Of a stretch of 64,000 nt of DNA, positions 12,048 to 53,423 are shown in pieces (the stretch's first letter is position 1; each line of letters starts with the position of its first letter). A model generated the notes under the pieces. It did not search any database. It was not told the origin of the DNA and saw nothing but the letters and a program-made list of their open reading frames with translations. The stretch is from assembly GCA_049516875.1 (NCBI GenBank), contig JBEKSS010000001.1:32001-96000 (forward strand). Reading direction: 5' to 3'. Source of the stretch: Candidatus Bathyarchaeia archaeon. Lineage in GTDB: Archaea > Thermoproteota > Bathyarchaeia > Bathyarchaeales > Bathycorpusculaceae. Position numbers and translations under genes: made by a program.

Positions 12048-12065
12048 GGGGTAAAGTTTTATCCC
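12048..12065 (+). repeat. Palindromic boundary site 1
   Basis: GGGGTAAAGTTTTATCCC. Confidence 0.9.
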
Positions 12066-12115
12066 AAACACACACACGCGCACTATGTCTGTCTCAGTCT
12101 GTCAGTCTCTCAAGT

Positions 12116-12946
12116 CTATTTTAGTCCTTTCTTTTTACTTAACTCCTGCCATATTTTCAAGCCTCTTCGAATACGTTTTTTTCTGTTCAAATCGGTAATA
12201 ACCGCGAAAGTGCCAATTCGAGGGTCAGGCGAAAGAGTAAATGTTGAGTTCGTTGTTTCAGCCTCTATCTTCATAGCTACAAAGCATTTGTGTGCAAATC
12301 TAACATGAGTCTTAGCGCTCTCCCAAATGATTTGCTTGGGGCTAAACCTTAAGTTGTGCTGATTTTTCCAAATATTAGCAAGCATATTTATGGGATAAGC
12401 TCTTGCGTCAATTTCCAGTTCGATGTCTCGTTTTTTTCTTCTTATCTTAAGCCATTGAAATCCTGATTCAAGATCCCAAGGCAACGGATTCCCAGAAACC
12501 CACTCGTTATTCATAATCTTAGCAGCTAATCGATTTTGCTGATCATAAAGCGTTGCTGAAATCTCTATTCTGTTTTTGTTGATATTCAAAGATAGCAGAT
12601 TCTCACCATCAATTGCCACTAAATCTCCAGTGCCAATTATTTGGCTAGTCCCGACATTAACAATAGGAATATTCTGATTGACTTCTAGCTGCCCTTGAAC
12701 AAACCCTTGTTTAATATTATAGGGATTCGATTTGTAGAATAGTTGTTCTTTCTTAGTCATTACTTTGTGTGTTGCTTTGTAATGACATGGAAAAGGACAA
12801 AGCAGCATGATATCCTCCGGTTTTTTGGATTTTCTTACAATATGGTGATATTGAACTATTGGTTGACCACATTTGCAACACCCAAAACCTGCTTCTTGTC
12901 TGACGATTCTCTTGACAGGAGCGGGTATCTCAGTTCTCTCGCTCAT
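12116..12946 (-). CDS. HNH endonuclease domain protein
   Basis: IPAPVKRIVRQEAGFGCCKCG...YHHI...LLCPFPCH; GGTGA SD upstream. Confidence 0.8.
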   Translation of the reverse strand: MSERTEIPAPVKRIVRQEAGFGCCKCGQPIVQYHHIVRKSKKPEDIMLLCPFPCHYKATHKVMTKKEQLFYKSNPYNIKQGFVQGQLEVNQNIPIVNVGTSQIIGTGDLVAIDGENLLSLNINKNRIEISATLYDQQNRLAAKIMNNEWVSGNPLPWDLESGFQWLKIRRKKRDIELEIDARAYPINMLANIWKNQHNLRFSPKQIIWESAKTHVRFAHKCFVAMKIEAETTNSTFTLSPDPRIGTFAVITDLNRKKRIRRGLKIWQELSKKKGLK

Positions 12947-12956
12947 TTTCAATCAC

Positions 12957-13345
12957 CTATTTTGGGAATGCGATTCTTGGAATCCACTTCCGTTTTTCAT
13001 TTCTCAAGTATTGAGCTAACAGGGAGGCCTCTTCACAAATCAACGTCTCAACTTCCTGACTTTTACCATATCTAATCCGTGGGATATCAACCCTCATCAA
13101 TAAGTATTCGTTCAGATGTCTAAGCAAATCTCTGTGTTCAGTTCACTTAAGTACTGCCTCTTTCCTTTCTTTCTCGTTGAAAGAATCTCTGTCTTCAGAA
13201 CGAAGTCAGACGGTTTGAGCTTCTTACAGTACTGGATCAGAAAGTCGTCTATCAAATAGCGGTACAATTCCATGAAGTCACATATCAGACTCGGCTTGCC
13301 CATTGCGGCAGTGTGCAGAAACCCAAGGTAGGGTTCAAGCTTGGC
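12957..13345 (-). pseudogene. cas1: Cas1-solo (casposase-like) C-terminal remnant, frameshifted near 13133
   Basis: AKLEPYLGFLH...KPSLICDFMELYR, then in shifted frame RVDIPRIRYGKSQEVETLICEEASLLAQYLRNEKRKWIPRIAFPK*. Confidence 0.85.
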
Positions 13346-13350
13346 CTTTA

Positions 13351-13701
13351 TCAATAGCGCACGCGCTCTTCCTCCTTGGTTTCCAAAAGTCGCTTGACGC
13401 TCTCTGGAACTTGTCCTTCAATCCAAATGTCTTCAATATCTTTGAACGGCACAAATACAATATCGCCAAAAGTCAAATGCGTGATTTCAGTTGGAGTATT
13501 ATCGAGAGTTCCCTTCACAAGCTGATTTTCAACTTGAACTTCGGAAACCTTGACCCACATATGTTCGACACGTTTACCAGCAGAGAATGCAGATTTCACC
13601 ATATCGGCTTTGAGTAACTGCTCCACAGTGAATTTTCCCTTGTTTGGATAGAGTTTCTCTGAACATTCAGGACAAACATAGAGAATATTGGGATCAGACA
13701 T
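13351..13701 (-). CDS. DUF2314/YegJ-like protein with N-terminal CPEC
   Basis: EHMWVKV...GTLDNTP...GDIV; GGAG SD before MSDPN. Confidence 0.65.
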   Translation of the reverse strand: MSDPNILYVCPECSEKLYPNKGKFTVEQLLKADMVKSAFSAGKRVEHMWVKVSEVQVENQLVKGTLDNTPTEITHLTFGDIVFVPFKDIEDIWIEGQVPESVKRLLETKEEERVRY

Positions 13702-13831
13702 TATTCTCCACTCCAAACGCGCGCGCCCTAAGTATCCCAATTGATTTAACTTATCGTTTATGAATCGGAAATTCAGAACCAGAATTGGGTTTGGGTTTGT
13801 GTGTGTGCGCGCGCTTGCTCTTCCCTTTATC

Positions 13832-14047
13832 TCAATCTCCTTTTCTAAGATTTCTTTTGAACATTTTCTCGATGTTATAATTATCAACCGCTTGAAGACT
13901 TTCTTTTATCAATTCAACTTCTGTCTTTCTAGGGACATAGGAAACACTACCATTAGAATTAATCCAGAAATTGGAATCTTCAACAAAATGCACAACCATC
14001 AATAGGCGACCGTCAGAAGACATACGAACTTCAATTTTCGCTGGCAT
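13832..14047 (-). CDS. Hypothetical protein
   Basis: 71 aa ATG ORF with TATA-like sequence upstream. Confidence 0.5.
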   Translation of the reverse strand: MPAKIEVRMSSDGRLLMVVHFVEDSNFWINSNGSVSYVPRKTEVELIKESLQAVDNYNIEKMFKRNLRKGD

Positions 14048-14575
14048 GCAAAAATATATTGTGGAAGTGATATTTTTGCGTTGAGTTTTTGATTAACTAC
14101 TGCATCGTTCGCTATTTTTGTATTATCCAACGTTGCATTCGCTAATTCAATAGGCTAAAACAGGTGATATTCACTTCAATAAGTTGAAAAGGTAGCATGT
14201 AACTTCAATCATTTGCTTTGGAATAGTAGATTTTAATGTTGCTAGAAATACTTGGCTCAAATTGGTCAGTTTATGTTGATTTGTTTATCTCAGAAAGGTA
14301 TAGCAAGAGTGGAAGCGTTTCTTGACTCACTACCTTGCGCGTGCTTTTATTTGAAATAACAAATTCGAGAGCCTATTAAGGTTAGAGGATTCTAACTAAG
14401 AGCGCGCGCTGCCATGTATTCATCTTTCCCGATTTTCTATGCTCTTATTCTCCAGATTTGAAGTTTTACAATTACGAAGGGTTTTGGGATTCCTTTAAGC
14501 GCGCCATAAGCCATTTTGAAATGAATGAAAGAATTTATTAATCTGTTGAAATAGAATGGTTCACTGGGAATAGCA

Positions 14576-15034
14576 TTGTCGCAATTACTTCCTCTCGAGA
14601 AATTTCTCTCAATGTTTGAGTCTGATTTGCAAAACACGGTGGCTAACATTGAATGGATGATACCAGAGCGAAAGGATATTTATGGTTTAGTAAGAAACGC
14701 ATGGAAAGAGCTTCAACCGCAATTTGAAACAGCGACAAAAGAGATACGTGAGATTGTATCTACCGATGTTAGCGCGGGCGCGCGCTTTCAAGCTATGGGA
14801 TTATCAGGTTCACAGTTAGAACTAAAGATTAAAGAATACACAAGACGTAGAGAACGACTGCTTAATTTTGATAAGCTTAAGCTATCAAGAATTGCAAGTG
14901 ACGTTTTGAAGAGATTATTAAAAGCGTTATTGACCTCTGCTGACAATATACTTGACACTTTGGCATCAATTTTCCCTCCTATGCAGGCAATCAAGGAATT
15001 CAAGGATACTCTCGTAAGTATAGCGTCAGACTAA
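14576..15034 (+). CDS. Hypothetical helical protein
   Basis: 152 aa ORF in AT-rich island. Confidence 0.6.
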   Translation: MSQLLPLEKFLSMFESDLQNTVANIEWMIPERKDIYGLVRNAWKELQPQFETATKEIREIVSTDVSAGARFQAMGLSGSQLELKIKEYTRRRERLLNFDKLKLSRIASDVLKRLLKALLTSADNILDTLASIFPPMQAIKEFKDTLVSIASD

Positions 15035-15126
15035 GTGTAGCGCGCGCCAGACTTGAGAGTTGCCGACAAATATAAGACGAACTTCAACAATATGAGAGTG
15101 ATTTCTGCCTATTTGGTGATAGCAAC

Positions 15127-15342
15127 ATGGTCAGCGATACTCTCGTAGGAAAAATAATCAAAATGTCTGGTAACAACCTTACAATAAGGGTTTTTGTTGA
15201 GTCTGGCGAAAAAACAGAATACTATGAGGTAACGCTTCCAGTCAAAGCAGAACTTCTTGACACTGCTGTGTCAAATATCGGCAGGAAGGTTAGTTTCTAC
15301 ACATGGAAGGGCTATATAGACGGTCTCGAAACAGCCTCCTAG
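15127..15342 (+). CDS. Small hypothetical protein
   Basis: GGTGA SD, 71 aa, beta-rich. Confidence 0.6.
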   Translation: MVSDTLVGKIIKMSGNNLTIRVFVESGEKTEYYEVTLPVKAELLDTAVSNIGRKVSFYTWKGYIDGLETAS

Positions 15343-15417
15343 CCACTTGCTCTGCGCGCGCAAAATAAAAAATCCAGAAACAGTGTCGTCGTCCGTCGTC
15401 GTAAATATTGTGTGTGT

Positions 15418-15435
15418 GGATAAAACTTTACCCCC
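15418..15435 (-). repeat. Palindromic boundary site 2
   Basis: GGATAAAACTTTACCCCC. Confidence 0.9.
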
Positions 15436-15552
15436 AAACCCAAACCCTGCCGAAGCAGCAAAGAAAAACAGAGACGCAGAAAAATCTGCAAAACCGCTTT
15501 AGATCTTCATCTCTTCAACCTTTAGCGAGCTAGGGGGCAAAACTGGTGATGA

Positions 15553-15699
15553 TTAAAAAGCCTTCAGAGCTTTCATTTGATTAGATAACTTGAGTTTAAT
15601 ACAGTTAGTGCAGACCGTGACAAATACCTTCTCATTAGGAAAACCCACTGCATACGGCACTATTTCTGCTCCACACTTGGGGCACTTCACTTGCGACAT
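15553..15699 (-). CDS. Zinc-ribbon microprotein (48 aa)
   Basis: Manual translation MSQVKCPKCGAEIVPYAVGFPNEKVFVTVCTNCIKLKLSNQMKALKAF; GAGGT SD. Confidence 0.6.
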   Translation of the reverse strand: MSQVKCPKCGAEIVPYAVGFPNEKVFVTVCTNCIKLKLSNQMKALKAF

Positions 15700-15931
15700 T
15701 CTTCTACCTCAGCTATCCAACTGATCAATCAAATTGAAACGGACACTTAAACGGTATTTCGATCAGCAGAATATTACCAAAAAAGCGCGCGCTCGTCCTT
15801 CTCACACACACGCCGTGTGAGTGTGTGTTGTATGGGTAGGTATAGGTAGGTGTAGAGGTAGGAGTTGGCAGTGGCAGTGACCGAGAGTTTGAGTGACTGG
15901 CAGAGCGAGTGACCGTGAAATTGGTTGGTTG

Positions 15932-15948
15932 AGGGTGAAGTTTTATCC
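15932..15948 (+). repeat. Palindromic boundary site 3 (GTGAAG variant)
   Basis: AGGGTGAAGTTTTATCC. Confidence 0.8.
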
Positions 15949-16021
15949 AATTGACCAAATTTCGGAGTTGCGGAAAAGTTATAGCTGAACCAGTTCAATC
16001 AGCTTCAGTGCGTGTTCACAA

Positions 16022-16558
16022 TTGCTTGAAGGAAAGAATATTAACATGAGGGTTATGGAGAAAGAGGACTTGCCACTATTTGCAGAATGGGTTAACAAGC
16101 CTGAGTTCATTGGTGAATACAATCCTCTGCGACAGATGTCCAGAACAGAGATAGAGAAGGGTTATGAAAAAAGCAGTCTTGAACAAATGGAGTTTATTAT
16201 TGAAAAGAAAGATGGAAATAAAATCGGTTACATATGGCATTTTGCTGCCCATCCTGTAGCAAAACTGTTGGAGATAGGTTATTTCTTAGTTCCAAGCGAG
16301 AGAGGTAAAGGCTACTGTACTGAAGCCGTCAACATTATGGTCGACTACTTGTTTCTCTCAAAAGAAATCATACGTATTCAAGCTCATACTGAACTGAGAA
16401 ATATGGCTTCTCAGAGGGTTTTAGAAAAAGTTGGATTCAAAAAGGAAGGAACAGTTCGCAAATCCTTTTTCAACAGAGGAGAATATAGAGATGCTTGTCT
16501 GTATAGCATCCTGAGAGTGGAATGGAAAGAACCAAGAATACTGACAAGGACCGCTTAA
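16022..16558 (+). CDS. GNAT N-acetyltransferase, RimJ/RimL family
   Basis: EIGY...ERGKGYCTEA...NMASQRVLEKVGFKKEG. Confidence 0.92.
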   Translation: MLEGKNINMRVMEKEDLPLFAEWVNKPEFIGEYNPLRQMSRTEIEKGYEKSSLEQMEFIIEKKDGNKIGYIWHFAAHPVAKLLEIGYFLVPSERGKGYCTEAVNIMVDYLFLSKEIIRIQAHTELRNMASQRVLEKVGFKKEGTVRKSFFNRGEYRDACLYSILRVEWKEPRILTRTA

Positions 16559-16563
16559 GAAAT

Positions 16564-16582
16564 GGGGATAAGACTTCACCCC
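16564..16582 (-). repeat. Palindromic boundary site 4 (GTGAAG variant)
   Basis: GGGGATAAGACTTCACCCC. Confidence 0.8.
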
Positions 16583-16679
16583 TACATACACCACTCTTTC
16601 TAGACCGAGGCACCAGTAAAATGCAGTCAACACATATATGACATAGCAATCAAAGACTCAAAAAGAGGAAACACCAACT

Positions 16680-17132
16680 ATGAAACAGCAAACAAGCCAG
16701 TTCTCAGAAAAAGCAGCAAACTTCTTCAGGCAAGACTACAACTGCGCTCAAAGCGTCCTGTTGACCATGCAAGAATACTATGGCATTCGCAGGAACAGGT
16801 TAATCCCAAAAATCGCCACAGCGTTTGGAGGGGGAATCGGGAGACGCGGCTCACTGTGTGAAGCGTTAACAGGCGCCATAATGGCCATTGGGTTGAGGCA
16901 TGGAACCAACAAGACAGTCTTGGCAGAAAAAGAAAAGGCATACCAGATAGCTCTAAGATTCTACGAACAATTTGTAAAAGAATGTGGTAGCCCCTTCTGC
17001 AGAGAACTCATCGGATATGATTTAACTAATCCCGAAGAACTCGAAAGACTACGAAAGTCAAACGTGCGCGAAGAAAAATGCTCCTATTTCGTGACAAAGG
17101 CTGTTGAAATACTGATTAGCTTAGAAGAGTAA
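16680..17132 (+). CDS. C_GCAxxG_C_C family putative redox protein
   Basis: YNCAQSV, FGGGIG, LCEALTG, CREL. Confidence 0.88.
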   Translation: MKQQTSQFSEKAANFFRQDYNCAQSVLLTMQEYYGIRRNRLIPKIATAFGGGIGRRGSLCEALTGAIMAIGLRHGTNKTVLAEKEKAYQIALRFYEQFVKECGSPFCRELIGYDLTNPEELERLRKSNVREEKCSYFVTKAVEILISLEE

Positions 17133-17396
17133 TAGAGCCCAGCGTGGACTTGAACATAAGGCAAGTGGCGATGTCTCCCGCAAACCCCTCTTTTTCTATG
17201 TCAATCCAGATTCCGAGTTCATCATTATATAGCGAATCCGCCGGGAATTGAACCCCGCAGGGTGAATTTGACCCGCCTCTGGGTCTTCTTCAGCATCCCT
17301 CTTTTTTCTATTTTGCGCTTGTATGCTTCTTTTGTCGTACATGAAAGCATGCTCTTGCAAGTCAATTTCCACTTCTAAAGAATGGTAACATTTTAT

Positions 17397-17582
17397 AGCG
17401 CGCATGTGTGTTCCTAAATTGGCCAAAAATGGTTTTTATTCGCCTTTTGTGATTTGGGGACAGTTTTGGACTTCGCATTTGTTCCTGAATTCCTTGCGGC
17501 AACCAGCCTTCTCGAACAAGCAGAAGTGTGCAGAACGGAATTAAAACCATTTTTAACCATTTTCGGAACAGGCATGCGCGCT
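17397..17582. mobile_element. MITE-like element flanked by GCGCGC
   Basis: AGCGCGCATGTGTGTTCCTAAATTGG versus reverse complement of right end AGCGCGCATGCCTGTTCCGAAAATGG (22/26). Confidence 0.65.
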
Positions 17583-17666
17583 GGGCTTGAGCGCCAGTTG
17601 AGTCTATAACCACAAAATTCTTTTGGTGTGAACAACCCTTTGTTTGTCTAGCTGTTGAGGTGTCGT

Positions 17667-19028
17667 ATGTTGACTTATGACAAGTACAAGCTTCTAGAAG
17701 CAGCGAAGAAAAATGAACAATCAGAAATAGAATGCTTGAAGAAACTGGTTGACATTCCAACCTGTTACGACAAACAGCACGACATGAAACCCATCATCGC
17801 ACAACTGACTGAGGAATTTGAAAAAAGAGGATACCAAGCTCGAACCTTTTCAACGTCCGGTGCGCCTGTAGTGGTCGCCGAAAAGAACCTTGGCATGGAA
17901 AAAACGTTGCTGTTCTATAATCACTACGACGTTCAGCCCGAGGAGCCACTGGAAGAGTGGAAATCTCCTCCATACAACCTGTCGACAAGAAACGACCGAT
18001 TGTATGGCAGGGGTGTCAGTGATGACAAGGGTCCTCTTGTTGCCAACCTCTTCGGCGTTCAGACCGCGCTTGAGGTGGGGTATGAACCACGGTGCAACAT
18101 AAGGTTCATTGTCGAAGGTGAGGAAGAAGCGGGCAGCATTCATCTCGCAGAGTTCTGCAAAGCACATCCAGAGTTGTTGAAGGCTGATGGCTGCGTCTGG
18201 GAGGGAGCGAACGCTGTTCCCAACCAACGAAGCGAGATATGCGCAGGAGTCAAGGGCGATGTCTACTTTGAACTCCACGTGAAGGGGTTTCACAAGGATG
18301 CGCATTCTGGTGACGCCCCAATTGTAGTCAACCCTGCTTGGAGATTGGTTTGGGCTTTGTCCACTATCAAGGATGAGAAGGAGAATATTCTGATTGATGG
18401 CTTCTATGATGACGTTGTTCCTCCGAGGAGAGAGGAACTGGAGCTTTTCGAGAAGTATCCTCCTGAACAGATTGAGCAGTATAAGCAGCTATACAAGACT
18501 GACAAGTTTTTGTTAGGAAGAGAAGGCGTGGGATTCTGGAAGGAACTAACCCTCAGACCAACATGTACAATATGTGGTCTGCTGGCCGGCTGGACGGGAC
18601 CCGGCTCCAAAACGGTCGTGGGCAGAGAAGCCATGTCAAAAGTGGATTTCAGAATCGTACCAGACCAGAAGGTGGACAGAGTCAAAAGACTATTGCGTGA
18701 GCATTTGGACAAACATGGTTTTTCTGACATCGAAGCGAGGTTTCTTACGGGCTACGAGCCTAGCAGGACATCGATCGATCATCCATTCATCCGATTGTTG
18801 GCAAATCTGGCCAGAGATTTTAGTGCTAAGGACGCCCTTCTGGTTCCTTCCTCTCAAGGGTCTGGGCCGGCTTACCTTTTTGGCTCCTACACCCCTTGGG
18901 CTGCATGCGGCACTTTCGATCCTGAAGACAACATTCACGCGCCAAACGAGAGCATGAGGTTGAACGATCTCAGATACATGACTGCCTTTATCGCCGCCGT
19001 AGCCACAGAACTAGGAACCAAAAAATGA
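17667..19028 (+). CDS. M20/ArgE/DapE family metallopeptidase
   Basis: HYDVQP, GRGVSDDKG, EGEEEAGS, HAPNE. Confidence 0.92.
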   Translation: MLTYDKYKLLEAAKKNEQSEIECLKKLVDIPTCYDKQHDMKPIIAQLTEEFEKRGYQARTFSTSGAPVVVAEKNLGMEKTLLFYNHYDVQPEEPLEEWKSPPYNLSTRNDRLYGRGVSDDKGPLVANLFGVQTALEVGYEPRCNIRFIVEGEEEAGSIHLAEFCKAHPELLKADGCVWEGANAVPNQRSEICAGVKGDVYFELHVKGFHKDAHSGDAPIVVNPAWRLVWALSTIKDEKENILIDGFYDDVVPPRREELELFEKYPPEQIEQYKQLYKTDKFLLGREGVGFWKELTLRPTCTICGLLAGWTGPGSKTVVGREAMSKVDFRIVPDQKVDRVKRLLREHLDKHGFSDIEARFLTGYEPSRTSIDHPFIRLLANLARDFSAKDALLVPSSQGSGPAYLFGSYTPWAACGTFDPEDNIHAPNESMRLNDLRYMTAFIAAVATELGTKK

Positions 19029-19585: not shown

Positions 19586-19624
19586 CTTGTTAGAATACGG
19601 TCTTTCCTCTTCGTTTCGTGCACG

Positions 19625-22004: not shown

Positions 22005-22115
22005 TGTTCCTAAATTCCTTTCTTAATGTGTGGCAGGGTTGAGTTGTGTGCCTCTCTAATGGAACGTACTATGAAGAGAGAAGTACGAGATATGTCGCAA
22101 ACGAATTTAGGAACA
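22005..22115. mobile_element. 111-bp MITE, copy A
   Basis: Perfect 13-bp TIR TGTTCCTAAATTC/GAATTTAGGAACA; inverted identical copy at 44844-44952. Confidence 0.85.
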
Positions 22116-22152
22116 AATCGTTATCTTTGGTATTGTTTGAACAGATGATAAG

Positions 22153-42509: not shown

Positions 42510-42618
42510 AACCAAAGCAGACCACGCCCTTCTTTTCGGCGCCTATTTTTCCCATTTTTCATTTAATCTTCAGCAAGCTTTATTGATTTTCACAGTCATA
42601 GGACTCTGATGAATTATC

Positions 42619-43823: not shown

Positions 43824-43832
43824 GAGCTGAGC

Positions 43833-44111: not shown

Positions 44112-44716
44112 TAAAATACATCTTAGCTACGTTACTGCTTGGAGGAGTCGCAGGCTATCTGGACGCGAATTGGGCGAGTGTCGTCAATAGTGCTTGGGTT
44201 TCCGATTATTTGCTGAATGCCTCACTCATGCTGCTGTTGTTTGTTATGGGAGTAGCCCTTGCTATGGACAAGGACTCCATTGCGAAGATAAGGCTGAGAG
44301 GACTCCGGATCTTGATTGTTCCCTTAGCAATTGCGTTGGGCACCATTCTTGGCGGTGTGGTCAGCGCGCTGATACTTGGCATTAACGTGGTTGCGACGAC
44401 CGCGGTAAGCGCAGGGTATGGCTGGTACACGTTGACAGGCCCGCTCGTGGGCCAGATTTTCGGAGCAAAGTGGGGAGCACTCGGCTTTGCCGCGAACTTC
44501 CTGAGAGAACTGTTGACCATAATCACCGTTTCTTTGATGGTTAAAGTTGACAAGTACGCGCCAACTGCATCAGGCGGCGCAACAGCCATGGACACAACAC
44601 TGCCAATCATCGTGCGTTACTGCGGCTCTGACACGCTGATCACAGCGTTTTCAAGCGGCTTTGTACTAACCATGATAGCTCCTTTCACAATAATGGCAAT
44701 AGCCTCGCTAGGCTGA
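44108..44716 (+). CDS. LysO (DUF340) family exporter
   Basis: GYGWYTLTG, NFLRE, GGATAMDTTLP. Confidence 0.88.
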   Translation: MIKYILATLLLGGVAGYLDANWASVVNSAWVSDYLLNASLMLLLFVMGVALAMDKDSIAKIRLRGLRILIVPLAIALGTILGGVVSALILGINVVATTAVSAGYGWYTLTGPLVGQIFGAKWGALGFAANFLRELLTIITVSLMVKVDKYAPTASGGATAMDTTLPIIVRYCGSDTLITAFSSGFVLTMIAPFTIMAIASLG

Positions 44717-44843
44717 GTTCCCTCCCAGACACCGTTAACTTATTCTTCATGATGTTATGATTCGCATCGAGGAAATTGGTCTAGTGACTCGGTGAATCTG
44801 GCAGGTGTTTTTGATTGTTGTGCTATCTTCTAGCGCGCATGCT

Positions 44844-44952
44844 TGTTCCTAAATTCGTTTGCGACATATCTCGTACTTCTCTCTTCATAGTACGTTCCAT
44901 TAGAGAGGCACACAACTCAACCCTGCCACACATTAAGAAAGGAATTTAGGAA
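44844..44952. mobile_element. 111-bp MITE, copy B (inverted, last 2 nt lost)
   Basis: 109 nt identical to reverse complement of 22007-22115. Confidence 0.85.
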
Positions 44953-45040
44953 ATCCATTCCCATGAAGTCGAAGGAACAATTTCAGTCTTCTAGTGTCCC
45001 CGCTTATTATAAATACTAGTTATAGCAAGGAATACTAGGG

Positions 45041-45382
45041 ATGTTTTTGACCAGATTCTTGGCATTGTGGCATGAGAACCCGTTAGCACCATGGCCTAAG
45101 GATCCCGCTGAGCTTTCAAAATTGAGAGAAAAAATGTGGGACGGTATAGACAACCTCCTGAAGAAGGGCGAAATCAAAGAGTTCGGCTTCTTTCTGGACG
45201 GAACATCAGGATACGCAATTGGCGAAAAAGATTCAGAAACTACTTTCAGAAACATAAGCATGTTCTTGCCCTACTACGTTTCGAGCGTACATGAAATAAT
45301 ACCCTACGAGAAAGGCAAGGAAATCTTGGGGACTCTCTGGAAAGCTCAATCGAAGATGTTGCACGGGCAAAGTCAACGATAG
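45041..45382 (+). CDS. Hypothetical protein
   Basis: 113 aa ORF with TATA-like TTATAAA upstream. Confidence 0.65.
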   Translation: MFLTRFLALWHENPLAPWPKDPAELSKLREKMWDGIDNLLKKGEIKEFGFFLDGTSGYAIGEKDSETTFRNISMFLPYYVSSVHEIIPYEKGKEILGTLWKAQSKMLHGQSQR

Positions 45383-45601
45383 CTGTCATCCGCAGACGTG
45401 ACTAGTCAAACAAATCTCATCTCTCTTTTTCTATAACCTGATCTTGTTGCTTTATTCCAGCATAGGAATAAGCCGAGCACTTCAAGATTCGATGAGAAAA
45501 GAAACCTTGAAACAGATGAGACTAGAGCGTGCGCTCTTCTGCGACCTTTTCTGAAGTTCATCTTTAACGCGTTGTGGCTTTGAGTTTTGCAATAGATTGA
45601 T

Positions 45602-45850
45602 TCAGAAGTTTCCGCGAGCGCGAGCAAGTTTGTACTTTCTATCTGATTCGTCGATTGAGTGATCGCGATCGATGGACGCTTGCTTGATATAGTTGTGTTC
45701 GCTTAGGTAGGCCATCACGATTGATCTGACTATTTCTGCGTCTTCTGTTCCAAAGCCTTTCAATGACCGGATAATATTCATCTGGTCTTCGTCGAAAGTC
45801 ACATTAACTGATTTGTGCGAGTTTGCGCTTTGATCAATCGCATTTGTCAT
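45602..45850 (-). CDS. Ribbon-helix-helix (CopG-like) protein
   Basis: SVNVTF...LKGFGTEDAEIVRSIVMAYLSE. Confidence 0.7.
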   Translation of the reverse strand: MTNAIDQSANSHKSVNVTFDEDQMNIIRSLKGFGTEDAEIVRSIVMAYLSEHNYIKQASIDRDHSIDESDRKYKLARARGNF

Positions 45851-46016
45851 CTATTCTTTCATCTCCATGCTTTTTCATGTATTCTTTGATAGCCCTGGTC
45901 GTTTCTTCGCTTACTCTCCGGCTTGATCCGTGCTTCTGAATGACAAAGAGCAACCATTGTTTCCAAGTGCCTTCGTCCATGTTTACGCTGGTCTTCTTTT
46001 TCGGCATGTCGGTCAT
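45834..46016 (-). CDS. Small RHH-like protein
   Basis: KKKTSVNMDEGTWKQW...VSEETTRAIKEYMKKH. Confidence 0.6.
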   Translation of the reverse strand: MTDMPKKKTSVNMDEGTWKQWLLFVIQKHGSSRRVSEETTRAIKEYMKKHGDERIDDKCD

Positions 46017-46145
46017 GTTTACCGTTATACCTTTATAAGTCTGCCCTTTTATGGCTTGATGAAGCATAAAATGTGAATGGGCTATTGCCAACAGGTTTAT
46101 TTTGGAAAAGACACTATTGACGATTGAAGGGTGAGGTGACAAAAC

Positions 46146-46259
46146 ATGGGTGGAGGAAGGAATACACGTAGAAAAGTCGTCGAGAGCGCTCGCCGTGACA
46201 AAGCGAAGGGTCATCAAACGAGAAGAGCTCGCGGGGGAAAGAAACAGAAGAGAAGGTAG
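46146..46259 (+). CDS. Basic microprotein (37 aa), paralog of 23549-23647
   Basis: MGGGRNTRRKVVESARRDKAKGHQTRRARGGKKQKRR; GAGGTGA SD. Confidence 0.7.
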   Translation: MGGGRNTRRKVVESARRDKAKGHQTRRARGGKKQKRR

Positions 46260-46410
46260 AGAAGCGATCTTGGGCAGCTCATCCTTGTAAGGTACGCTTA
46301 CGATGTATATATGAGGAAAGGCACGCCGATAAGTTATTGCAATATTCTGCTTTTGCTTAGAAATGGCATGTTTTGCCTCAGAGGTTACAAACACATAAAA
46401 AATAAGAAGG

Positions 46411-46806
46411 TTGTCTGGTAGAAACCATTCCACATTTAACATAGCAGCGGAAATTCTGAGAGAGTTGCGGGAACCAACTGGCGTTACGAATACCATATCC
46501 AATTGTAATATGAGCTTCAAACAGTCAGGGTATTACTTGAGTTTCATGAAGTCAAGCGATATTATCCAGACAGACGTAATAACGGGAAGAGTGAAGTATT
46601 GTAGAACAGAAGCTGGACAGAAGTTTCTAGAAACCTATGACAAGATGATTCTGTTACTAGATCCTGGTTTTTTTCCCGCGCTGCCCAATGTAACAACGAG
46701 CACGCGCTGCAACACGATGGTTGGTTGGGGTAAAGTTTTATCCCCAAACCCAAAAAAAGAAGTATATACCATTTTTAGCCATTTTAGGGACAAGCCAGCG
46801 CGCTAA
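46411..46806 (+). CDS. Winged-helix regulator (HTH_45-like); tail runs through boundary site 5
   Basis: RNHSTFNIAAEIL...NCNMSFKQSGYYL...YCRTEAGQKFL. Confidence 0.7.
   Translation: MSGRNHSTFNIAAEILRELREPTGVTNTISNCNMSFKQSGYYLSFMKSSDIIQTDVITGRVKYCRTEAGQKFLETYDKMILLLDPGFFPALPNVTTSTRCNTMVGWGKVLSPNPKKEVYTIFSHFRDKPAR
46727..46745 (+). repeat. Palindromic boundary site 5
   Basis: GGGGTAAAGTTTTATCCCC (consensus). Confidence 0.92.
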
Positions 46807-46853
46807 CATAAAAAGCCTATATGAAAGTTTTCGATAACATATGATAGGTCTAC

Positions 46854-47279
46854 ATGGGTGTGGTGTTCATGGCTGAGTCCAAGATTAGACTCTATTTGAA
46901 AAGCGTCAAAACTGTGACGGGGACCGTCGAGATAGAACGCGAGTATATACCCCGACCCCGCCTTCCGCCCACGGTAAAAACAGAACCAAAACACGAGTAC
47001 ATACTTCCCGAGGACCAACAGAAAGCAACTCAAATGGTCAAGAGTATCGCTTCCAAGTATGGTTTAAAAGTTGAAGTTGTTGATGTGACGAGGGAAAATG
47101 TCTTTCGCAGAGAAATACAGAAAGAACGAGAAAAAATAAGGATTTTCCCAACTTTGATTGTGAGTTCTGAGGAGAGAATTGAAGGCAACATAACAGAGCA
47201 GCAAGTTGAAGAGCTTCTTTCTGGCACTCATTCTTCTGATACGCACCAACGTGACAAAAGAACTATGGGTTTGGGGTAA
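46854..47279 (+). CDS. Hypothetical thioredoxin-fold-like protein; stop codon inside site 6
   Basis: VEVVDVT...FPTLIV...RIEG; ends GGT TTG GGG TAA. Confidence 0.65.
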   Translation: MGVVFMAESKIRLYLKSVKTVTGTVEIEREYIPRPRLPPTVKTEPKHEYILPEDQQKATQMVKSIASKYGLKVEVVDVTRENVFRREIQKEREKIRIFPTLIVSSEERIEGNITEQQVEELLSGTHSSDTHQRDKRTMGLG

Positions 47280-47290
47280 AGTTTTGTCTC
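47273..47290 (+). repeat. Palindromic boundary site 6
   Basis: GGGGTAAAGTTTTGTCTC. Confidence 0.8.
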
Positions 47291-47350
47291 ATTTTCGCTC
47301 TGATGGCTGAACTCCTCTTGTCTCGCTGCTTTGAACTCTTGTTTTCTCAT

Positions 47351-47749
47351 CTAGCGCTTGTCTTCATTGACCAGTTTCCGTCTTTCCCCGCGAAGCCAAT
47401 CATAACCAATCAACCAAGTTATAAGAGCGACAGCCAGTTGAATTCCGATAAGCAGGAACCCAAATGAGCCAGACGATGTCAATAGGCTATAATCTAGAAA
47501 CAGGAAGCTTGTCCTTTCGACAAGTTCGTAAAATATGCCGAAGTATATTGGAAAGAACAGTATCAAGGACCATGCAGCTAGGGTTGCTCTCCAACTTCTT
47601 CTCAGCCTGAGCAGCACATAGGAAGTTCCCAGACCAATTAGTGCGGGAAAAAAGAACAGTGCAACATTGAACCATACGAAAATCCAGATTGCGCCTGAGC
47701 CTATACCAGCCTGACGTTCAGATAGCAGCATCAATGTTGTTATGGGCAC
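47351..47749 (-). CDS. Hypothetical membrane protein
   Basis: Three hydrophobic segments; start uncertain. Confidence 0.55.
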   Translation of the reverse strand: MPITTLMLLSERQAGIGSGAIWIFVWFNVALFFFPALIGLGTSYVLLRLRRSWRATLAAWSLILFFPIYFGIFYELVERTSFLFLDYSLLTSSGSFGFLLIGIQLAVALITWLIGYDWLRGERRKLVNEDKR

Positions 47750-47832
47750 AATCGTTTCGAACCCTCTTTCTCTTCGTATGATTTCCTATTGCACCCCTTA
47801 TGACTTGTGGAAGAATCGGGATGGTGGTGGTT

Positions 47833-47851
47833 GGGGTAAAGTTTTATCCCC
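47833..47851 (+). repeat. Palindromic boundary site 7
   Basis: GGGGTAAAGTTTTATCCCC (consensus). Confidence 0.92.
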
Positions 47852-48319
47852 AAACCAAACATTTTTTGCAGTGACGACGGACGACGACGAACGCATAGCG
47901 ATTTACTGAGGAGTTCTAGCGCGCTCTAGTGAAACAAATAGAGATGCGCCGATATTATTCAGGTTCTTGATTAGAAGGCGTACCGTGCACAAGAATTCTT
48001 TTGCAAATTAAGGGGAAAGGAACCCTTTGTGCACGGCACATCCTAAAAGGATTAAATGATACAACCAATTTAAGCCTTGTTCACACAAAACCTTCATGAA
48101 ACCCTCAAATGTGTGCTAGATAGCGAAAACTCGTTTCTTTTGAAAGATACGGATGTATAGCGCGCGCTAAAGACGGAAAGAAAGTTTCTGTTGTTGTTAA
48201 GAAGACTAGATACCTTGCAAATCTTGAAGAACTTCGAAAGGTTCTTGATGGTAGAAAAAGCTATACTTGCATTCTTGGACCTTCTGAAACAAAGAAAACT
48301 GAGGAAGTGAATGTAAAAA

Positions 48320-48520
48320 ATGAGAGATAAGAAACATAGAAGGAAACGTGTTAAGACTATTAATCTTGACACCTTCACAGGTCATAGGCTACTGTATTGG
48401 ATTGGAATGCAACGTAACAGTCTAGAGGTTAAGAGGTTTATCGCTGAGTATTTTAGAAGGAAATTTCCAGAGGATTCTTTCTGGATTCCAATTTTGAAGA
48501 GGAAAGGTTTAATCAGTTGA
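48320..48520 (+). CDS. Small basic hypothetical protein
   Basis: 66 aa ATG ORF; 3' end duplicated nearby. Confidence 0.4.
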   Translation: MRDKKHRRKRVKTINLDTFTGHRLLYWIGMQRNSLEVKRFIAEYFRRKFPEDSFWIPILKRKGLIS

Positions 48521-48742
48521 GCAAAAACAGGAATAGTCAGCAGGAGAGAGACACATGAAAAACTGTGACACTTGTCGCCATTACAAAGAGCATAATTGGA
48601 GACTTTGCCGTAAAAGAGATTATCCGCTTCATTGTTGGGAAGCTGAATCAGTTGAGCAAAAACAGGAATAGTCAACAAAGGTATTACGACCGTACAGAAG
48701 GAAATTTCCAGAGGATTCTTTCTGGATTCCAATTTTGAAGAG
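48455..48742 (+). repeat. Permuted direct duplication A-B...B-A
   Basis: 47 bp at 48455-48501 = 48696-48742; 29 bp at 48511-48539 = 48646-48674. Confidence 0.85.
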
Positions 48743-48810
48743 AAGAGGTTTGATCTGGTCGTTTCGTCGTCGTCAGTCGTTTTTGTTTCATTTGATTCGT
48801 TTGGGTTTTG

Positions 48811-48826
48811 GGGGTAAAGTTTTATC
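48811..48826 (+). repeat. Palindromic boundary site 8
   Basis: GGGGTAAAGTTTTATC. Confidence 0.88.
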
Positions 48827-49030
48827 AAACCCAACCCAAACCCATTTACGCTCTCAACTATCCTCACTCTCACTTACACTCACTCAGCGCGCGCTAGTAT
48901 TTGGTTGAGCGGATCAATTTTGGAATAATAATTGGTCGATGCAGCTAGTACCGTGAGTCAAATTTAAATCAACTCGAAATAAACACTGGTTGAGTAAGGA
49001 GCGTTCCATTTGACAATCAGGTGAGAAAAC

Positions 49031-49762
49031 ATGATCGACTCATTATTCCATCTCTCATTAGGTGAGGGAACATTAGTCGGCTTTTCGGCAGGTATCTTAT
49101 GCGTGCTTCTAAGCTATCTACTTATAATCTTCAGAAAGAAACGAATTGCTCGATTTTTCTTCCGCGATATGATAACCATTGTTGGTCTAGGTGTTATATT
49201 GCCGGTATTGTGGGTAAAGGCAAACGGTCTCTCTTTCAATGAATTCGGGTTGCCTGGAGAAAATTGGCTATGGGCTACATTTGCAAACATGATATTGGCG
49301 TTTTCATTGGCCACGATTTTCTATTTTGAAGCGAAGAAAAAGGGTCAGAGACCTGTTTTTTCTGGCAAATATGGAACGATTTTCTATTTGACGATAGGGG
49401 TGCTTTTTGAGACTTTGTTCTTCTATAGCTTCTTGAGACAGCTTTTTGAGCAGACCTTTGGCATAATCCCCGCGCTTTTGCTGACTTCGGTCTTTTACAG
49501 CTTGCATCACATTGGCTTAGAGGAACAAATGAAGGGCACAACGCCCGCTCAGGAGTTGAGAAAACTCTTTTTTGTAGGTCTTCTTTATTCCACCACATTC
49601 AGAATTTTCAACTCTGCTCTCGCAATTTTCCCATTTTTCATTGGTGTCGGAGTGATTTCTGATCTGATCGTTGAAAAGCAAAGTGAGCCTCTTTCGTGGA
49701 AAATCGCTCTTCTATCATTTTTCCTAATGATAGCAAGCGCGCTAATCATAATCAACCTTTGA
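49031..49762 (+). CDS. CPBP/Abi (CAAX protease-like) membrane protein
   Basis: FETLFFYSFL, FYSLHH; multi-TM; motifs degenerate. Confidence 0.7.
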   Translation: MIDSLFHLSLGEGTLVGFSAGILCVLLSYLLIIFRKKRIARFFFRDMITIVGLGVILPVLWVKANGLSFNEFGLPGENWLWATFANMILAFSLATIFYFEAKKKGQRPVFSGKYGTIFYLTIGVLFETLFFYSFLRQLFEQTFGIIPALLLTSVFYSLHHIGLEEQMKGTTPAQELRKLFFVGLLYSTTFRIFNSALAIFPFFIGVGVISDLIVEKQSEPLSWKIALLSFFLMIASALIIINL

Positions 49763-50027
49763 TCAAAAGAAAAGTGAACGTCTATTGGCGCGCGCTCTGT
49801 TATGAGGGGTACATTTTTGTGCTTTTCTGACCCCTCGTTGCATCAACTCACTATCCTATCCTTATTCTGTTCCAGTGGTATCCAGATGTGTCCTGAATCA
49901 GGTGTCCAGTCTTTAGCCTCCCATTGGAAGCATATGGATAGTTGTCCGTTAACCGTCGTCCGTCGTGGTCGTCGTCGTGGTTCGTGGTCGTCGTCCGTCC
50001 GTCGTCCGTCGTCGTCCGTGGTTGGTT

Positions 50028-50045
50028 GGATAAAACTTTACCTCC
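50028..50045 (-). repeat. Palindromic boundary site 9
   Basis: GGATAAAACTTTACCTCC. Confidence 0.85.
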
Positions 50046-50076
50046 TTCCTTCCGTCAGTGCGCGCTTTCTTTGAAA

Positions 50077-50760
50077 TTATGGTTGAGAGCTTAGAATTTT
50101 TCGTATATGTTGAGCGATTCTGTCGTAGGCCTCGAAGGCTTCCCGGGTTGGAAACGCCTTTCTCCCCACAATCCCGTCGTACTTTACGGGAATCCCACCA
50201 ATCACGATGGTTGTGATTGGTGAAATTACAGGCATTATCCCCACATATTGATCCTTCTTGTAAGGAGTTACCATGAGGTTTGGCGATCCAAGTTCAAGCA
50301 GCATATTCTTCAGTTCCGAGTCTGCGTTCAAAAGCTGCGCCAGTTCTCCGCCCTCCCAATTGTAATCGACGATTTCGCCGGTGGGGAAGCCTTTCTTGAT
50401 CTGTTTGGCCTCCGCCTTAAGTTGGTTCTCCAGGTTTCCCACATTTGCCCTTACCACATAGTTATACCTGTAGACCAGGTGACCTGGGCCGCCTGAGACC
50501 CCACCACCTGCGCCGATCCTGGATACCTCTACTAAGTCGATGTTTCGGCCTTCGACCTTGACACAACCCAGCGGAGGAAGGTTTTCCATGGTATAATAGA
50601 TATGACTGGTTCGAGAGTGATGTATGGCTTCGGGGCTCTTGAAGTCCAACACTGTTGCTTCTACGCCGATCTGTCGAAGATGCTCACACAACTCGTTTAT
50701 CAGGCCAACTTCGCGGGTGCGCGCCTCGATCGCTCCCCTTATCTTCTTAAAAAAACTCAT
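50077..50760 (-). CDS. Hypothetical protein
   Basis: Start MSFFKK with GGAGG SD; WEGGELAQLLNAD, FPTREAFEAYDRIA. Confidence 0.7.
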   Translation of the reverse strand: MSFFKKIRGAIEARTREVGLINELCEHLRQIGVEATVLDFKSPEAIHHSRTSHIYYTMENLPPLGCVKVEGRNIDLVEVSRIGAGGGVSGGPGHLVYRYNYVVRANVGNLENQLKAEAKQIKKGFPTGEIVDYNWEGGELAQLLNADSELKNMLLELGSPNLMVTPYKKDQYVGIMPVISPITTIVIGGIPVKYDGIVGRKAFPTREAFEAYDRIAQHIRKILSSQP

Positions 50761-50862
50761 CTGCAACCCCTCCACTTCAATCAATAGTTAACCGTTCTTG
50801 TAAATTAGACTTTTTCTTACTCGTCTTTTTCTTTGAAGAATCTTCCATGTTCTCTCCACCTC

Positions 50863-51285
50863 CTAGTGAAGTGCTTTGATATCTCCTTTCCTCTGAGAAC
50901 CACAATTAAAGCAGGTCTTGTTCTCTAACTCGTTCAGACAATCACAGTATTCGCACTTCCAGAAAGTCTTATTTCCAAGGACGGTAGCTTTAGTAGTTTC
51001 TTGGTTTGCAGTCATCTTCCCTTTCAATTCATTTTCACAAGCAAAGCATATTCCTGTTCCCCATTCGGGATGTTTCTTCCACCATGCCTCAGGACCCGTC
51101 CATCCATTCGGAGAACTTTCTGGCACATAGCTTCCAAATGCTCTTTGGTTGGGAAGTTTTATTCCACAGACCAAACAATGAGAGCAACAAGTTTGACAGT
51201 AGTTCTTTCCTCTATTTCCTGAACCGCTAAATCTGTAAAGTTTCTTACATCTCTCACAAGTCTTCTTTTCAAACATCTCATTCAC
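50863..51285 (-). CDS. Cys-rich zinc-finger protein
   Basis: Several CxxC pairs, C-terminal WKCEYC...CFNCG; GAGGTGA SD. Confidence 0.7.
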   Translation of the reverse strand: MNEMFEKKTCERCKKLYRFSGSGNRGKNYCQTCCSHCLVCGIKLPNQRAFGSYVPESSPNGWTGPEAWWKKHPEWGTGICFACENELKGKMTANQETTKATVLGNKTFWKCEYCDCLNELENKTCFNCGSQRKGDIKALH

Positions 51286-51626
51286 CTCTTAATGTTAGGT
51301 ATGGCTCTCGGCACATGCCGATATTATTCCAGCAAGTGCAAGAAACAATGCACCACACAGGAGACCGAGAGAAACATTAGTGTCTCCCATGAGATAGGAA
51401 ATAGCTCTCGCGCGCGCGCCGTAACCACCGCCATTCTTTTCATGCAGTAACACGTTTTCACAAGTGGACATAGATAGTTCCTCACTTGCTACAATTTCTG
51501 ATTGAAGCTTAGCACTTATAAGACTTCAGAAGCCTGAATCAATTCAATTACTTCAACCAAGTTATTGGTTCATGGTAGTGGGCTAAACTTAACGCGCGCT
51601 CAGTGCAATTCAAACCGCACATTTAT

Positions 51627-51946
51627 CTAATTTCTTTGCCAGAAATGCTTCTTCTTGGCTTGTTCCTGCTGTTTGGACGCGATGGGTTCTTCGCGCTGTG
51701 TCGGTTCGTTTGCCTTTTCTTTCTTAACCTCGATTTCTTCACTGACCTCTTTGACGGCTTCTCTCACAGCCCTCAGCTTTATCTCTTTTATTAGGCTCAC
51801 ACCTTTACCCATGATTACGCCACCCGCATATATGGAATAGCAGAAGCGCCTCTGAAAAGAATGGAGATGCCAAAATAGGGGGGAATAATCACAACTATAA
51901 GTCCAATTGCCAGCAATGCATATCCGACAATTTTGTGAGACTCCAT
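51627..51946 (-). pseudogene. Membrane protein remnant (frameshift/internal deletion)
   Basis: MESHKIVGYALLAIGLIVV continues in another frame as YAGGVIMGKGVSLIKEIKL. Confidence 0.45.
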
Positions 51947-52542
51947 ATTAAAATCCCTCGCTTGATATGCACTAATTAGTTCACTTGTATTGATTAGTTT
52001 TATGGACTATTAATATACATTATGAATGCAACGCGCGTTATCTATGGCGAAGAGTTCGCATTGGTTTGAGGACTGCTCTTCGCAGCCAAGTCGCGACTGT
52101 CTGTCTTGTGAGCTTCATGTGTTCCTTTAAGTCGCCTACACTCAGCACAGTAGCCCAGCTTGTCTATGCTCTCGTTGTGAGCTCTGAGTTGGGCGTGGAT
52201 GGTTGCAGCGGAGCGGTCGAGTGCGCGCGCGGTGTAGTACGGTTTTCTGTATGTGTATGATTTTGTTTAGCTGTTTCTATTTCTAGTTTCTCTGTATGCT
52301 GGGGTTTAAGTGTACGTATAGCGTACTGTACGATTTTTCTGGGTGTTTTGTGTTAGTGTTGTAGCGTGTTCTTGGGTGTTTCTGTTGTTTGTTCCTAATG
52401 TTTTCTGTTCTGGCAATAATACATACAATAATAGCGAAAGACGTGAAACACACAATGGCAGACATACCAAAACCAGATAAGATACAAACCAAGCGCGTGG
52501 AGCTTAGCGTCGTCGTTCGTCGTCGTGCGTGGAAGGAAGGAA

Positions 52543-52558
52543 ATAAAACTTTACCCCC
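52543..52558 (-). repeat. Palindromic boundary site 10
   Basis: ATAAAACTTTACCCCC. Confidence 0.88.
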
Positions 52559-52632
52559 AAAACCCAAGTCTTAAATATGCCCGAATTGGACTGATGACAA
52601 GTTGCGATACGTGGAATAGGCAGTGTTGCTTC

Positions 52633-53385
52633 TTGCCAAAGAAAGACTCTGTGATGAGACAGTGGGACGACGCGGCAGAATCCTGGGTTGATTTTGTGAG
52701 GCAGGGTAAGGACTATTACAGGGATGAGCTTAACAACCCTGCAGCTTTCAGACTGATAGGAAACGTGAAAGGTCAACTTGTGCTGGACTTGGCCTGCGGC
52801 GAAGGATACAACACCCGAATACTGGCCCGAAAAGGTGCCAGAGTAACAGGGGCAGACTTTTCGGCGAGACTGATAGGACTTGCGAGAATCGAGGAGGCCA
52901 AAGAGAGGCTGGGCATAGACTACCGTGTTTCAGATGCTGCTGACCTGTCTGAGTTTTCAGGTAATTGCTTTGACCTTGTGACTTGTTTCATGGCGTTGCA
53001 GGATATCAAGAACTACGAGAGAGCGGTATCTGAAGTGGCAAGAGTGCTGAAGAACAGAGGCCGGTTCGTGTTTTCAATTCCTCATCCGTGTTTCGAAATG
53101 ATAGTTGACAAAGGAAACAGAATAAGCACAACTACGAGATATTTTGGAGCTGCAGAGGACCATATTCGTTGGAAAATGGAGAGACTCCTGAAACCATTCG
53201 AGACTACAAGTTTTCACAGGACATTAACCGACTATTTCAGTGTGCTCTATAAGAACAGGCTTCTCATAAGAAGGCTCGTGGAGCCACAGCCGACAAAGCA
53301 AGGGATCAAGAAACATCCACCTCTCAAAGAAGTTCTTCTCAGACCACAATCAGTAGTAATAGAAGCAGTAAAAGAGCCAATCTGA
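52633..53385 (+). CDS. Class I SAM-dependent methyltransferase
   Basis: VLDLACGEG, FDLVTC, ARVLKNRGRFVFSIPHP; start uncertain. Confidence 0.9.
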   Translation: MPKKDSVMRQWDDAAESWVDFVRQGKDYYRDELNNPAAFRLIGNVKGQLVLDLACGEGYNTRILARKGARVTGADFSARLIGLARIEEAKERLGIDYRVSDAADLSEFSGNCFDLVTCFMALQDIKNYERAVSEVARVLKNRGRFVFSIPHPCFEMIVDKGNRISTTTRYFGAAEDHIRWKMERLLKPFETTSFHRTLTDYFSVLYKNRLLIRRLVEPQPTKQGIKKHPPLKEVLLRPQSVVIEAVKEPI

Positions 53386-53404
53386 GCAGACCTCTAAGGA
53401 GATT

Positions 53405-53423
53405 GGGGCAAAGTTCTATCCCC
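53405..53423 (+). repeat. Palindromic boundary site 11 (diverged)
   Basis: GGGGCAAAGTTCTATCCCC, 17/19 to consensus. Confidence 0.75.

Follow-up and report, generated by a model that had tools for sequence, protein, structure and literature searches.

A repeated 19-base motif in gene islands of a Bathyarchaeia genome and its link to casposon-like elements with a stand-alone Cas1

Results

Motif copies in two gene islands of the window

The window is a stretch of 64,000 nucleotides (C1:32001-96000) from the 2.43-Mb, 20-contig genome of a Bathyarchaeia archaeon (G000), and sites within it are given in window coordinates. Copies of a 19-base motif, GGGGTAAAGTTTTATCCCC, are found there in two islands, between gene-sized units. 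The present study deals with this motif and with its relation to casposon-like elements that encode a stand-alone Cas1 (Cas1-solo). An earlier note, made from the window alone, had described 11 sites and proposed a gene-cassette array mobilised in trans by Cas1-solo or by a tyrosine recombinase.

Searching the window with the 19-mer at up to three mismatches gave 10 matches, compared with 0.01 expected from shuffled sequences, and 0 of 100 shuffles reached 10. The eleventh site of the earlier note, at 15932 on the plus strand, is a weaker copy that is reached by a profile built from the genome's own sites. Most of the reported coordinates were accurate, and only the minus-strand starts 15418, 50028 and 52543 were off by 2-4 bases. 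Site 1 (12048-12066, plus strand) reads GGGGTAAAGTTTTATCCCA, with one mismatch and a profile E-value of 7.8e-9. It is followed by site 2 (15416-15434, minus; one mismatch, also a profile match), by the degenerate site 3 (15932-15950, plus; more than three mismatches to the 19-mer, profile E 1.2e-3 to 1.4e-3) and by site 4 (16564-16582, minus; two mismatches). Further along, sites 5 (46727-46745, plus) and 7 (47833-47851, plus) are exact copies, and site 6 (47273-47291, plus) has three mismatches. Site 8 (48811-48829, plus) also has three, all within its last three positions, as compared to three in site 9 (50026-50044, minus) and two each in site 10 (52539-52557, minus) and in the diverged site 11 (53405-53423, plus). 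The only other profile match in the window lies at about 51147 and is very weak (E 1.1). Hence, the core regions are free of sites, in agreement with the earlier reading.

The three genes that the note had described as ending at sites are all correctly placed. The open reading frame (ORF) 46854-47279 has its stop codon inside site 6, while ORFs 16022-16558 and 52525-53385 end 5 bases ahead of site 4 and 19 bases ahead of site 11, respectively. The microsatellite arms beside sites 9 and 10 (49940-50060 and 52520-52560) vary in length among metagenome contigs, for example by an additional TCCT at 50042 or an additional GGAAGGAA at 52530.

Both site clusters sit in islands that are replaced in, or missing from, sister species. 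The 3′ end of an intron-bearing tRNA gene (11842-11955) immediately precedes island 1 (11960-17600, right limit approximate). Insertion of this island by a tRNA-duplicating integrase was considered and rejected, since no second copy of the tRNA 3′ end is present within the window. Island 2 (44722-53587) is absent from the sister genomes G003 and G004, whose flanks are contiguous, and one metagenome contig joins 44711 to 53587. In metagenome run X10, a strain at about 450x carries island 2 and lacks 46806-48159. This depth gap and the 44711 to 53587 joint are the only metagenome data used as evidence of this type; the other contig joints were not used to call circles or site-to-site deletions, because most of them have sides of 19-35 bases made up of the repeat itself.

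Pfam matches in the window support a Cas1 C-terminal remnant, a GNAT protein, a C_GCAxxG_C_C protein and an S-adenosylmethionine-dependent methyltransferase. The cas1, GNAT and methyltransferase labels of the earlier note are thus retained, while its HNH, CPBP and membrane-protein labels have no match and its thioredoxin-like label has a sub-threshold glutaredoxin/thioredoxin match only. As the note had also stated, the window holds no intact recombinase: the Pfam search saw only the 80-residue C-terminal remnant of a Cas1-solo (13112-13354, minus; PF01867, E 3.8e-14), in which the invariant His and Asp columns are kept. The interval containing this remnant (12067-15415) has (CA)n-type sequence at both ends, matching at 9 of 16 positions, and is probably a decayed autonomous element. 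The 527-bp interval 46746-47272 (plus) carries one small thioredoxin-like ORF; both its ends start with CCAAACCCA, match at 10 of 16 positions and are bordered by direct sites. The 2.5-kb interval 50045-52538, with (TTCC)n-type ends matching at 10 of 16 positions and direct flanking sites, is the best candidate for a non-autonomous element in the window. Over the nine window intervals, end matches range from 4 to 10 of 16 positions, the best being 46727 to 47273 and 50026 to 52539, with 10 each.

Distribution of the motif and of Cas1-solo

In the complete G000 genome, the motif is present in 48 copies at up to three mismatches, or 54 copies by profile at E below 0.01. The copies are clustered, with spacings of 72 bp to 7.6 kb, and 5 of the 54 are found no more than 1.5 kb from a contig end, where the expected fraction is 2.5%. 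According to our own, crude gene caller, 51 of the 54 sites are intergenic. The gene gaps that hold them are convergent in 15 cases, tandem in 12 and 11 and divergent in 13.

Of 301 genomes of the same Bathyarchaeia family, 66 contain the 17-mer at up to one mismatch, and they represent 35 of 70 genera. Only 1 of the 89 genomes of the largest genus contains it, and it was not found in any of the 16 genomes examined from the order's other families. At E 1e-60 or better, 47 of the 301 family genomes encode Cas1-solo. It is more common in site-rich genomes: 14 of the 32 genomes with at least five sites encode it, compared with 33 of the other 269 (odds ratio 5.6, overstated because kin genomes are not independent).

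G000 itself has an intact Cas1-solo gene outside the window (C9:118082-119107). The left end of the corresponding element is at C9:117465, and on its right side only a 20-base inverted match is seen, at the very end of the contig.

Unrelated sequences meet at the sites

The conserved block of the motif corresponds to positions 1-17; positions 18-19 and the arms vary. The left arm is G/T-rich and the right arm C/A-rich, over only about 20 bases each. The two arms of one site do not co-vary, as mean fold energies are -12.1 for native arms and -12.8 for chimeric ones (p 0.85). An RNA or single-stranded DNA hairpin under selection was rejected on this ground, since arms of the same site pair no better than arms taken from different sites.

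We compared the flanks of 146 sites from G000 and from loci of G002-G004, G021 and G023. Homology was mainly one-sided, with 104 left-only and 96 right-only high-scoring segment pairs (HSPs) compared with 8 that span the site. In a second, pair-wise pass, spanning homology was seen only between neighbouring sites of one record. Independent arms and one-sided homology are expected if each side of a site belongs to a different element. In addition, 12 of the 23 HSPs of at least 90% identity between G000 and loci of its relatives have an end no more than 35 bases from a site, and modules at sites are 90-99% identical between relatives as compared to 79-88% for the core flanks. These comparisons support the view that the sites are boundaries of mobile DNA, as the earlier note had suggested.

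A junction made of two abutting element ends without a common target was rejected. It predicts symmetric junctions, and only rare ones were observed, such as C11:228-267. Because of this rarity, it was replaced by a model in which a duplicated target lies between two element ends.

Cas1-solo elements in relatives duplicate their target

Thirty cas1 loci were examined, 20 of them in addition to an earlier set of ten. Flanking inverted repeats were found at 14 of the 30, and at one more locus by a separate comparison. Thirteen elements, of 2.8-10 kb, were measured; one of them ends at a contig end, leaving 12 whose outer edges can be assessed. All 12 have direct repeats at these edges. The repeats measure 13-16 bp, or 20 bp in the case of an abutting second element, whereas the longest in 200 shuffles were 8-11 bp. 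Taken together, the cas1-solo elements of relatives span sizes of 2.8-13 kb. The duplicated target is an AT-rich quasi-palindrome of the type TTAAAATTTAAT. The element ends open with a C-run, after which comes (CCCAAA)n, (CA)n, (CT)n or (CCT)n.

An empty site is seen in one case, for the 3.9-kb element of G012. There, two copies of TTAAAATTTTTAT surround CCCAAACCC...GGGTTTGGG, and at the same position G095 and G125 hold a single TTAAAATTTTTAT, which corresponds to the empty site. For the G269 element, a clean empty site was not found among 41 genomes of its genus. Overall, element structure, target duplication and one empty site are demonstrated for autonomous elements in relatives of G000.

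Cas1-solo matches PF01867 and TIGR00287, and each of the 13 elements encodes one Cas1. No DNA polymerase family was detected among the 100 ORFs of these elements, the largest of which encodes 366 residues, and none among ten selected ORFs from other cas1 loci. Given the absence of a polymerase from these 100 ORFs, we term the elements PolB-less and casposon-like. In an alignment of 18 Cas1-solo sequences, including the window fragment as far as it extends, the catalytic-type columns E160, H225 and D237 show conservation. We infer that Cas1 is the integrase of the elements. Small ORFs beside cas1 gave no match to the Cas2 family, and a scan of G000 found no CRISPR array.

Several other features of these loci were observed. 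A low-scoring Cas1 paralogue of about 345 residues is found within site clusters of five genomes; between these five loci, conservation is limited to the cas1 gene itself. G008 has Cas1-solo and lacks the motif, and its cas1 lies between inverted repeats built like half-sites. At locus L089 (G265:C6, 14696-14720), in a genus without the 19-base motif, a tandem pair is seen in which another (CA)n element end comes immediately after the right target-site duplication (TSD) of a 10-kb cas1 element. Beside cas1-solo, there is a recurrent protein of about 300 residues (L021:2248-3147, L094:4525-5424, L087:6330-7259, L089:11890-12834, L013:7022-7945, L014:9267-10166 and L015:10477-11388). It has a Walker A-type motif (GKT/GKS) together with a weak match to AAA-lid, and may be an accessory ATPase of the elements. 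Directly 3′ of cas1-solo, three genomes have a small ORF (107-121 residues) with an HExxH-type motif (LHELYHH) and no Pfam or NCBIfam match (L011:19080-19445, L015:8640-8963 and L021:5205-5546).

The duplicated target is the window motif

In motif-bearing genomes, eight cas1 loci have one site on each side, and the two flanking sites are direct (in the same orientation) in seven of the eight. The inner ends match at 12-14 of 16 positions in six of these loci (G136, G051, G003, G004, G021 and G023), while a match at 12 or more positions is reached by only 4.9% of the pairs that combine ends of different intervals. The end repeat unit differs among elements and is the same at both ends of any one element: (CCCAAA)n, (CAA)n, (CCCAA)n, (TTCC)n or (AACC)n. 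In the G174 element, the TSD with the left end reads AAAGTTTTATCCCCAAACCC, identical to a G000 site with its arm. Hence, the duplicated target of the relatives' elements is identical to the window motif. The Cas1-solo link drawn in the earlier note is borne out by these intact elements, which the motif flanks as a direct repeat and whose inverted ends match. Given the direct flanking sites and matching inner ends, we take the 19-mer to be composed of the oligo-G end of the left element, the duplicated target and the first C's of the right element. This composition fits the conserved block at positions 1-17, the independent arms and the break of homology at the site.

Other repeats and small features of the window

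Two tRNA genes with an intervening sequence are present, at 11842-11955 (plus) and 55851-55952 (minus). ARAGORN found no tRNA in the window, and one of the two scores only 18.9 bits in Rfam; the gene at 11842-11955 was missed by both programs. A 187-bp family of miniature inverted-repeat transposable elements (MITEs) is represented at 17396-17582, with inverted ends of about 50 bp starting AGCGCGCATG...TGTTCCTAAA. Solo ends of this family, which is unrelated to the sites, lie at 44830-44880 and, following site 5, at 46738-46806; more than 20 copies occur in G000 and many in sister genomes.

A 48-residue ORF with two CxxC pairs (15553-15699, minus) belongs to a 380-bp module, further copies of which (93-96% identity) are found in G004, in two places, and in G002. 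In the G002 copy, the adjoining site is interrupted by a MITE after GGGGTAAAGT. The 110-bp stretch 44843-44952 has exact repeats at C1:54007-54116 (window 22007-22116) and C4:42329-42438. All four sister genomes hold many copies, at 68-90% identity, of a 173-bp element at 55112-55284; G001 has more than 15 of them. G000 also has 1123 (GC)n tracts of at least three units. Intergenic DNA, about 20% of the genome, contains 70% of these tracts; MITE ends account for some of them but not for many others. These tracts were rejected as part of the system, being a genome-wide intergenic feature whose density near sites is no higher than in intergenic DNA generally.

Discussion

A model for the junction motif

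We consider it probable that the 19-mer is the junction left by casposon-like transposons of Bathyarchaeia, moved by a stand-alone Cas1 and lacking a DNA polymerase gene. Each element has the layout 5′-C-run, short microsatellite ... microsatellite, G-run-3′. In the proposed mechanism, the target in the motif-bearing lineage would be the AT-rich quasi-palindrome TAAAGTTTTAT with one or two flanking bases, and staggered joining would produce the 13-16 bp target duplication. Because the element ends supply the G-run and the C-run, GGGG-target-CC would be restored on both sides of the insert. The restored target could then receive the next element, and clusters of motif-separated units would build up. 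The window intervals would be units that are decayed or non-autonomous, and the Cas1 of C9:118082-119107 would move them in trans.

Several observations weigh against this mechanism. Cas1-solo at E 1e-60 or better is missing from 18 of the 32 site-rich genomes, some of which are 96-98% complete; they include G085 (32 sites, 98% complete), G102 (30 sites), G208 (36) and G002 (16). Repeated insertion predicts direct repeats throughout, and adjacent sites are in the same orientation in 43 cases and opposite in 29 (p 0.12). Mixed orientation would require that inversions took place later or that composite units transposed either way round. Over all 75 inter-site intervals, the two ends of one interval are only slightly more alike than ends of different intervals (7.92 as compared to 7.47 of 16 positions matching); 49 of 5000 permutations reach this mean and the Mann-Whitney p is 0.058. 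In the window, the end matches of all nine intervals stay below 12 of 16 positions, and the interval with the Cas1 remnant (12067-15415) is bounded by oppositely oriented sites. Finally, neither outer limit of island 2 coincides with a site, nothing resembling a site is present at its empty locus in G003 and G004, and the X10 deletion of 46806-48159 does not run from site to site.

Other explanations of the motif

The main alternative, which we regard as unlikely, gives the motif a regulatory or structural role as an intergenic palindrome, for example as a bidirectional promoter, a terminator or the operator of a lineage-specific DNA-binding protein. Modules would then be shuffled by homologous recombination between copies, as in the promoter-stem-loop cassettes of T4-type phages, and Cas1-solo elements would merely prefer such targets. 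Such a palindrome would account for the intergenic position of nearly all sites and for the many site-rich genomes without Cas1-solo. In addition, the core contains AAAGTTT, which is enriched 3.7-fold upstream of well-scored genes, and the degenerate copy C2:14675 resembles the promoter of a conserved gene. The orientation of sites relative to genes is random, which can be read in the same way. On the other hand, this even orientation with respect to the crude gene calls, together with the BRE/TATA-like boxes (TFB-recognition element and TATA box) that island genes have of their own between site and ATG, led us to reject a directional promoter as the main role. Sites are also as frequent at gene 3′ ends as at 5′ ends. 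The sequence AAAGTTTTAT is not a general promoter word, since 28 of its 44 copies are framed by the full GGGG...CC and the remaining 16 mostly read as variant sites. Moreover, a regulatory palindrome leaves unexplained both the empty site and the matched inverted ends with direct repeats around cas1.

An integron-like or pdif-like cassette array, in which an attC-type or Xer-type site is cut in trans by a tyrosine recombinase, was the layout evoked in the earlier note and is, in our estimation, very improbable. Gene-sized units lie between repeated sites, genes end at sites, the motif can be read as an 11-6-11 arrangement and tyrosine recombinase genes are present within several G000 site clusters. 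However, no attC-type R″/R′ ends (RYYYAAC...GTTRRRY) were seen by inspection, and a conserved centre with variable arms that do not co-vary is the opposite of attC. Neither the single orientation of integrons nor the alternating orientation of pdif/Xer sites was found (43 same and 29 opposite), and gene orientation is random. As for the recombinase, PF00589 matches occur in 24 of 24 other family genomes irrespective of sites, a distribution that does not match that of the motif, and the motif behaves as the target duplication of cas1 elements. Still more improbable is a repetitive extragenic palindromic (REP)-like element spread by a RAYT-type Y1 transposase. The motif is indeed a short, intergenic, imperfect palindrome with a lineage-specific sequence. 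Yet the sites are clustered in islands instead of being spread over the core genome, and no PF01797 (Y1 transposase) match was found in the four site-rich genomes G000, G003, G021 and G023, which led us to reject this origin.

Significance and comparison with known systems

The polymerase-free, array-forming elements of casposon type described here are new. A search of the literature collection used here found no description of polymerase-free Cas1 elements in Bathyarchaeia, which is not proof that there is none. Casposons are held to be ancestral to the CRISPR adaptation module. An insertion that rebuilds its own palindromic target would be the array-forming behaviour that the casposon-to-CRISPR scenario needs. 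More tentatively, and with doubts that outweigh our confidence, the elements may be a living intermediate between casposons and CRISPR arrays: a Cas1 without PolB or Cas2, each insertion regenerating a 15-17 bp quasi-palindromic repeat and producing arrays of gene-sized inserts. They might then serve as an archaeal gene-capture platform that stores, and exchanges between species, almost any DNA ended by short G-runs. With tens of junction copies per genome, in half of the genera searched in this one family, the Cas1-solo elements would explain how accessory-gene islands are assembled in abundant uncultured archaea of peat and sediment. They also provide a compact candidate integrase with a defined 13-16 bp target.

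Passages of the casposon literature (PMC9939771, PMC4779613, PMC6614799) define casposons by cas1 and polB together with terminal inverted repeats and TSDs. TSDs are given there as 14-15 bp, and tandem elements can share one TSD (PMC6614799, PMC4779613). According to PMC6614799, the casposase needs only the five terminal nucleotides of the oligo-C end, a 3′-terminal TCCCC pentamer being sufficient. The TSD length, the terminal requirement and the sharing of a TSD by tandem elements all fit the elements described here. According to the earlier note, Aciduliprofundum casposon ends are bounded by G- and C-runs. Such ends fit the TCCCC pentamer (PMC6614799), but the polarity here is reversed, 5′-CCCC...GGGG-3′. 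Like casposons of families 1-4, the Bathyarchaeia elements have a Cas1-family protein as sole candidate integrase, no linked CRISPR array found in G000, terminal inverted repeats, TSDs of similar length (13-16 bp), homopolymer-run ends and a sequence-specific, reused target, with one TSD separating tandem elements. According to the review passages concerned, all described casposon families carry a polymerase, and casposons are rare, usually one per genome. In contrast, the 13 elements analysed here have no family B polymerase, go down to 2.8 kb and have microsatellite-like ends that differ among elements (5′-C-run...G-run-3′). Junction copies number in the tens per genome, many units have no cas1, and the hosts are Bathyarchaeia.

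In spacer acquisition by CRISPR Cas1-Cas2, as outlined in passages of PMC6614799 and PMC9939771, insertion beside a palindromic repeat duplicates the repeat and the array grows as insert-repeat-insert, which is also the pattern proposed here. Unlike CRISPR spacers, the inserts are of 0.3-13 kb and contain genes, the repeat is of 15-17 bp, orientation is mixed and sites are spaced by 72 bp to 7.6 kb instead of by regular 25-50 bp spacers; nor is there a Cas2 match beside cas1 or an array in the G000 scan. Archaeal integrons, as described in PMC9668308, have bacterial-type attC sites and ORFs in the same orientation. Integron cassette arrays and clusters of attC sites lacking integron-integrases (CALINs) resemble the present islands in that gene-sized accessory units lie between repeated recombination-type sites and clusters may lack the enzyme. 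They differ in site structure, enzyme family and uniformity of orientation, the boundaries here being target duplications and not attC crossovers. Finally, as in the Tn7-type repeated insertion mentioned in PMC4779613, one target is used repeatedly, giving rise to an island of elements of which some are inactive. Here, however, the enzyme is different and the target is regenerated on both sides of the insert.

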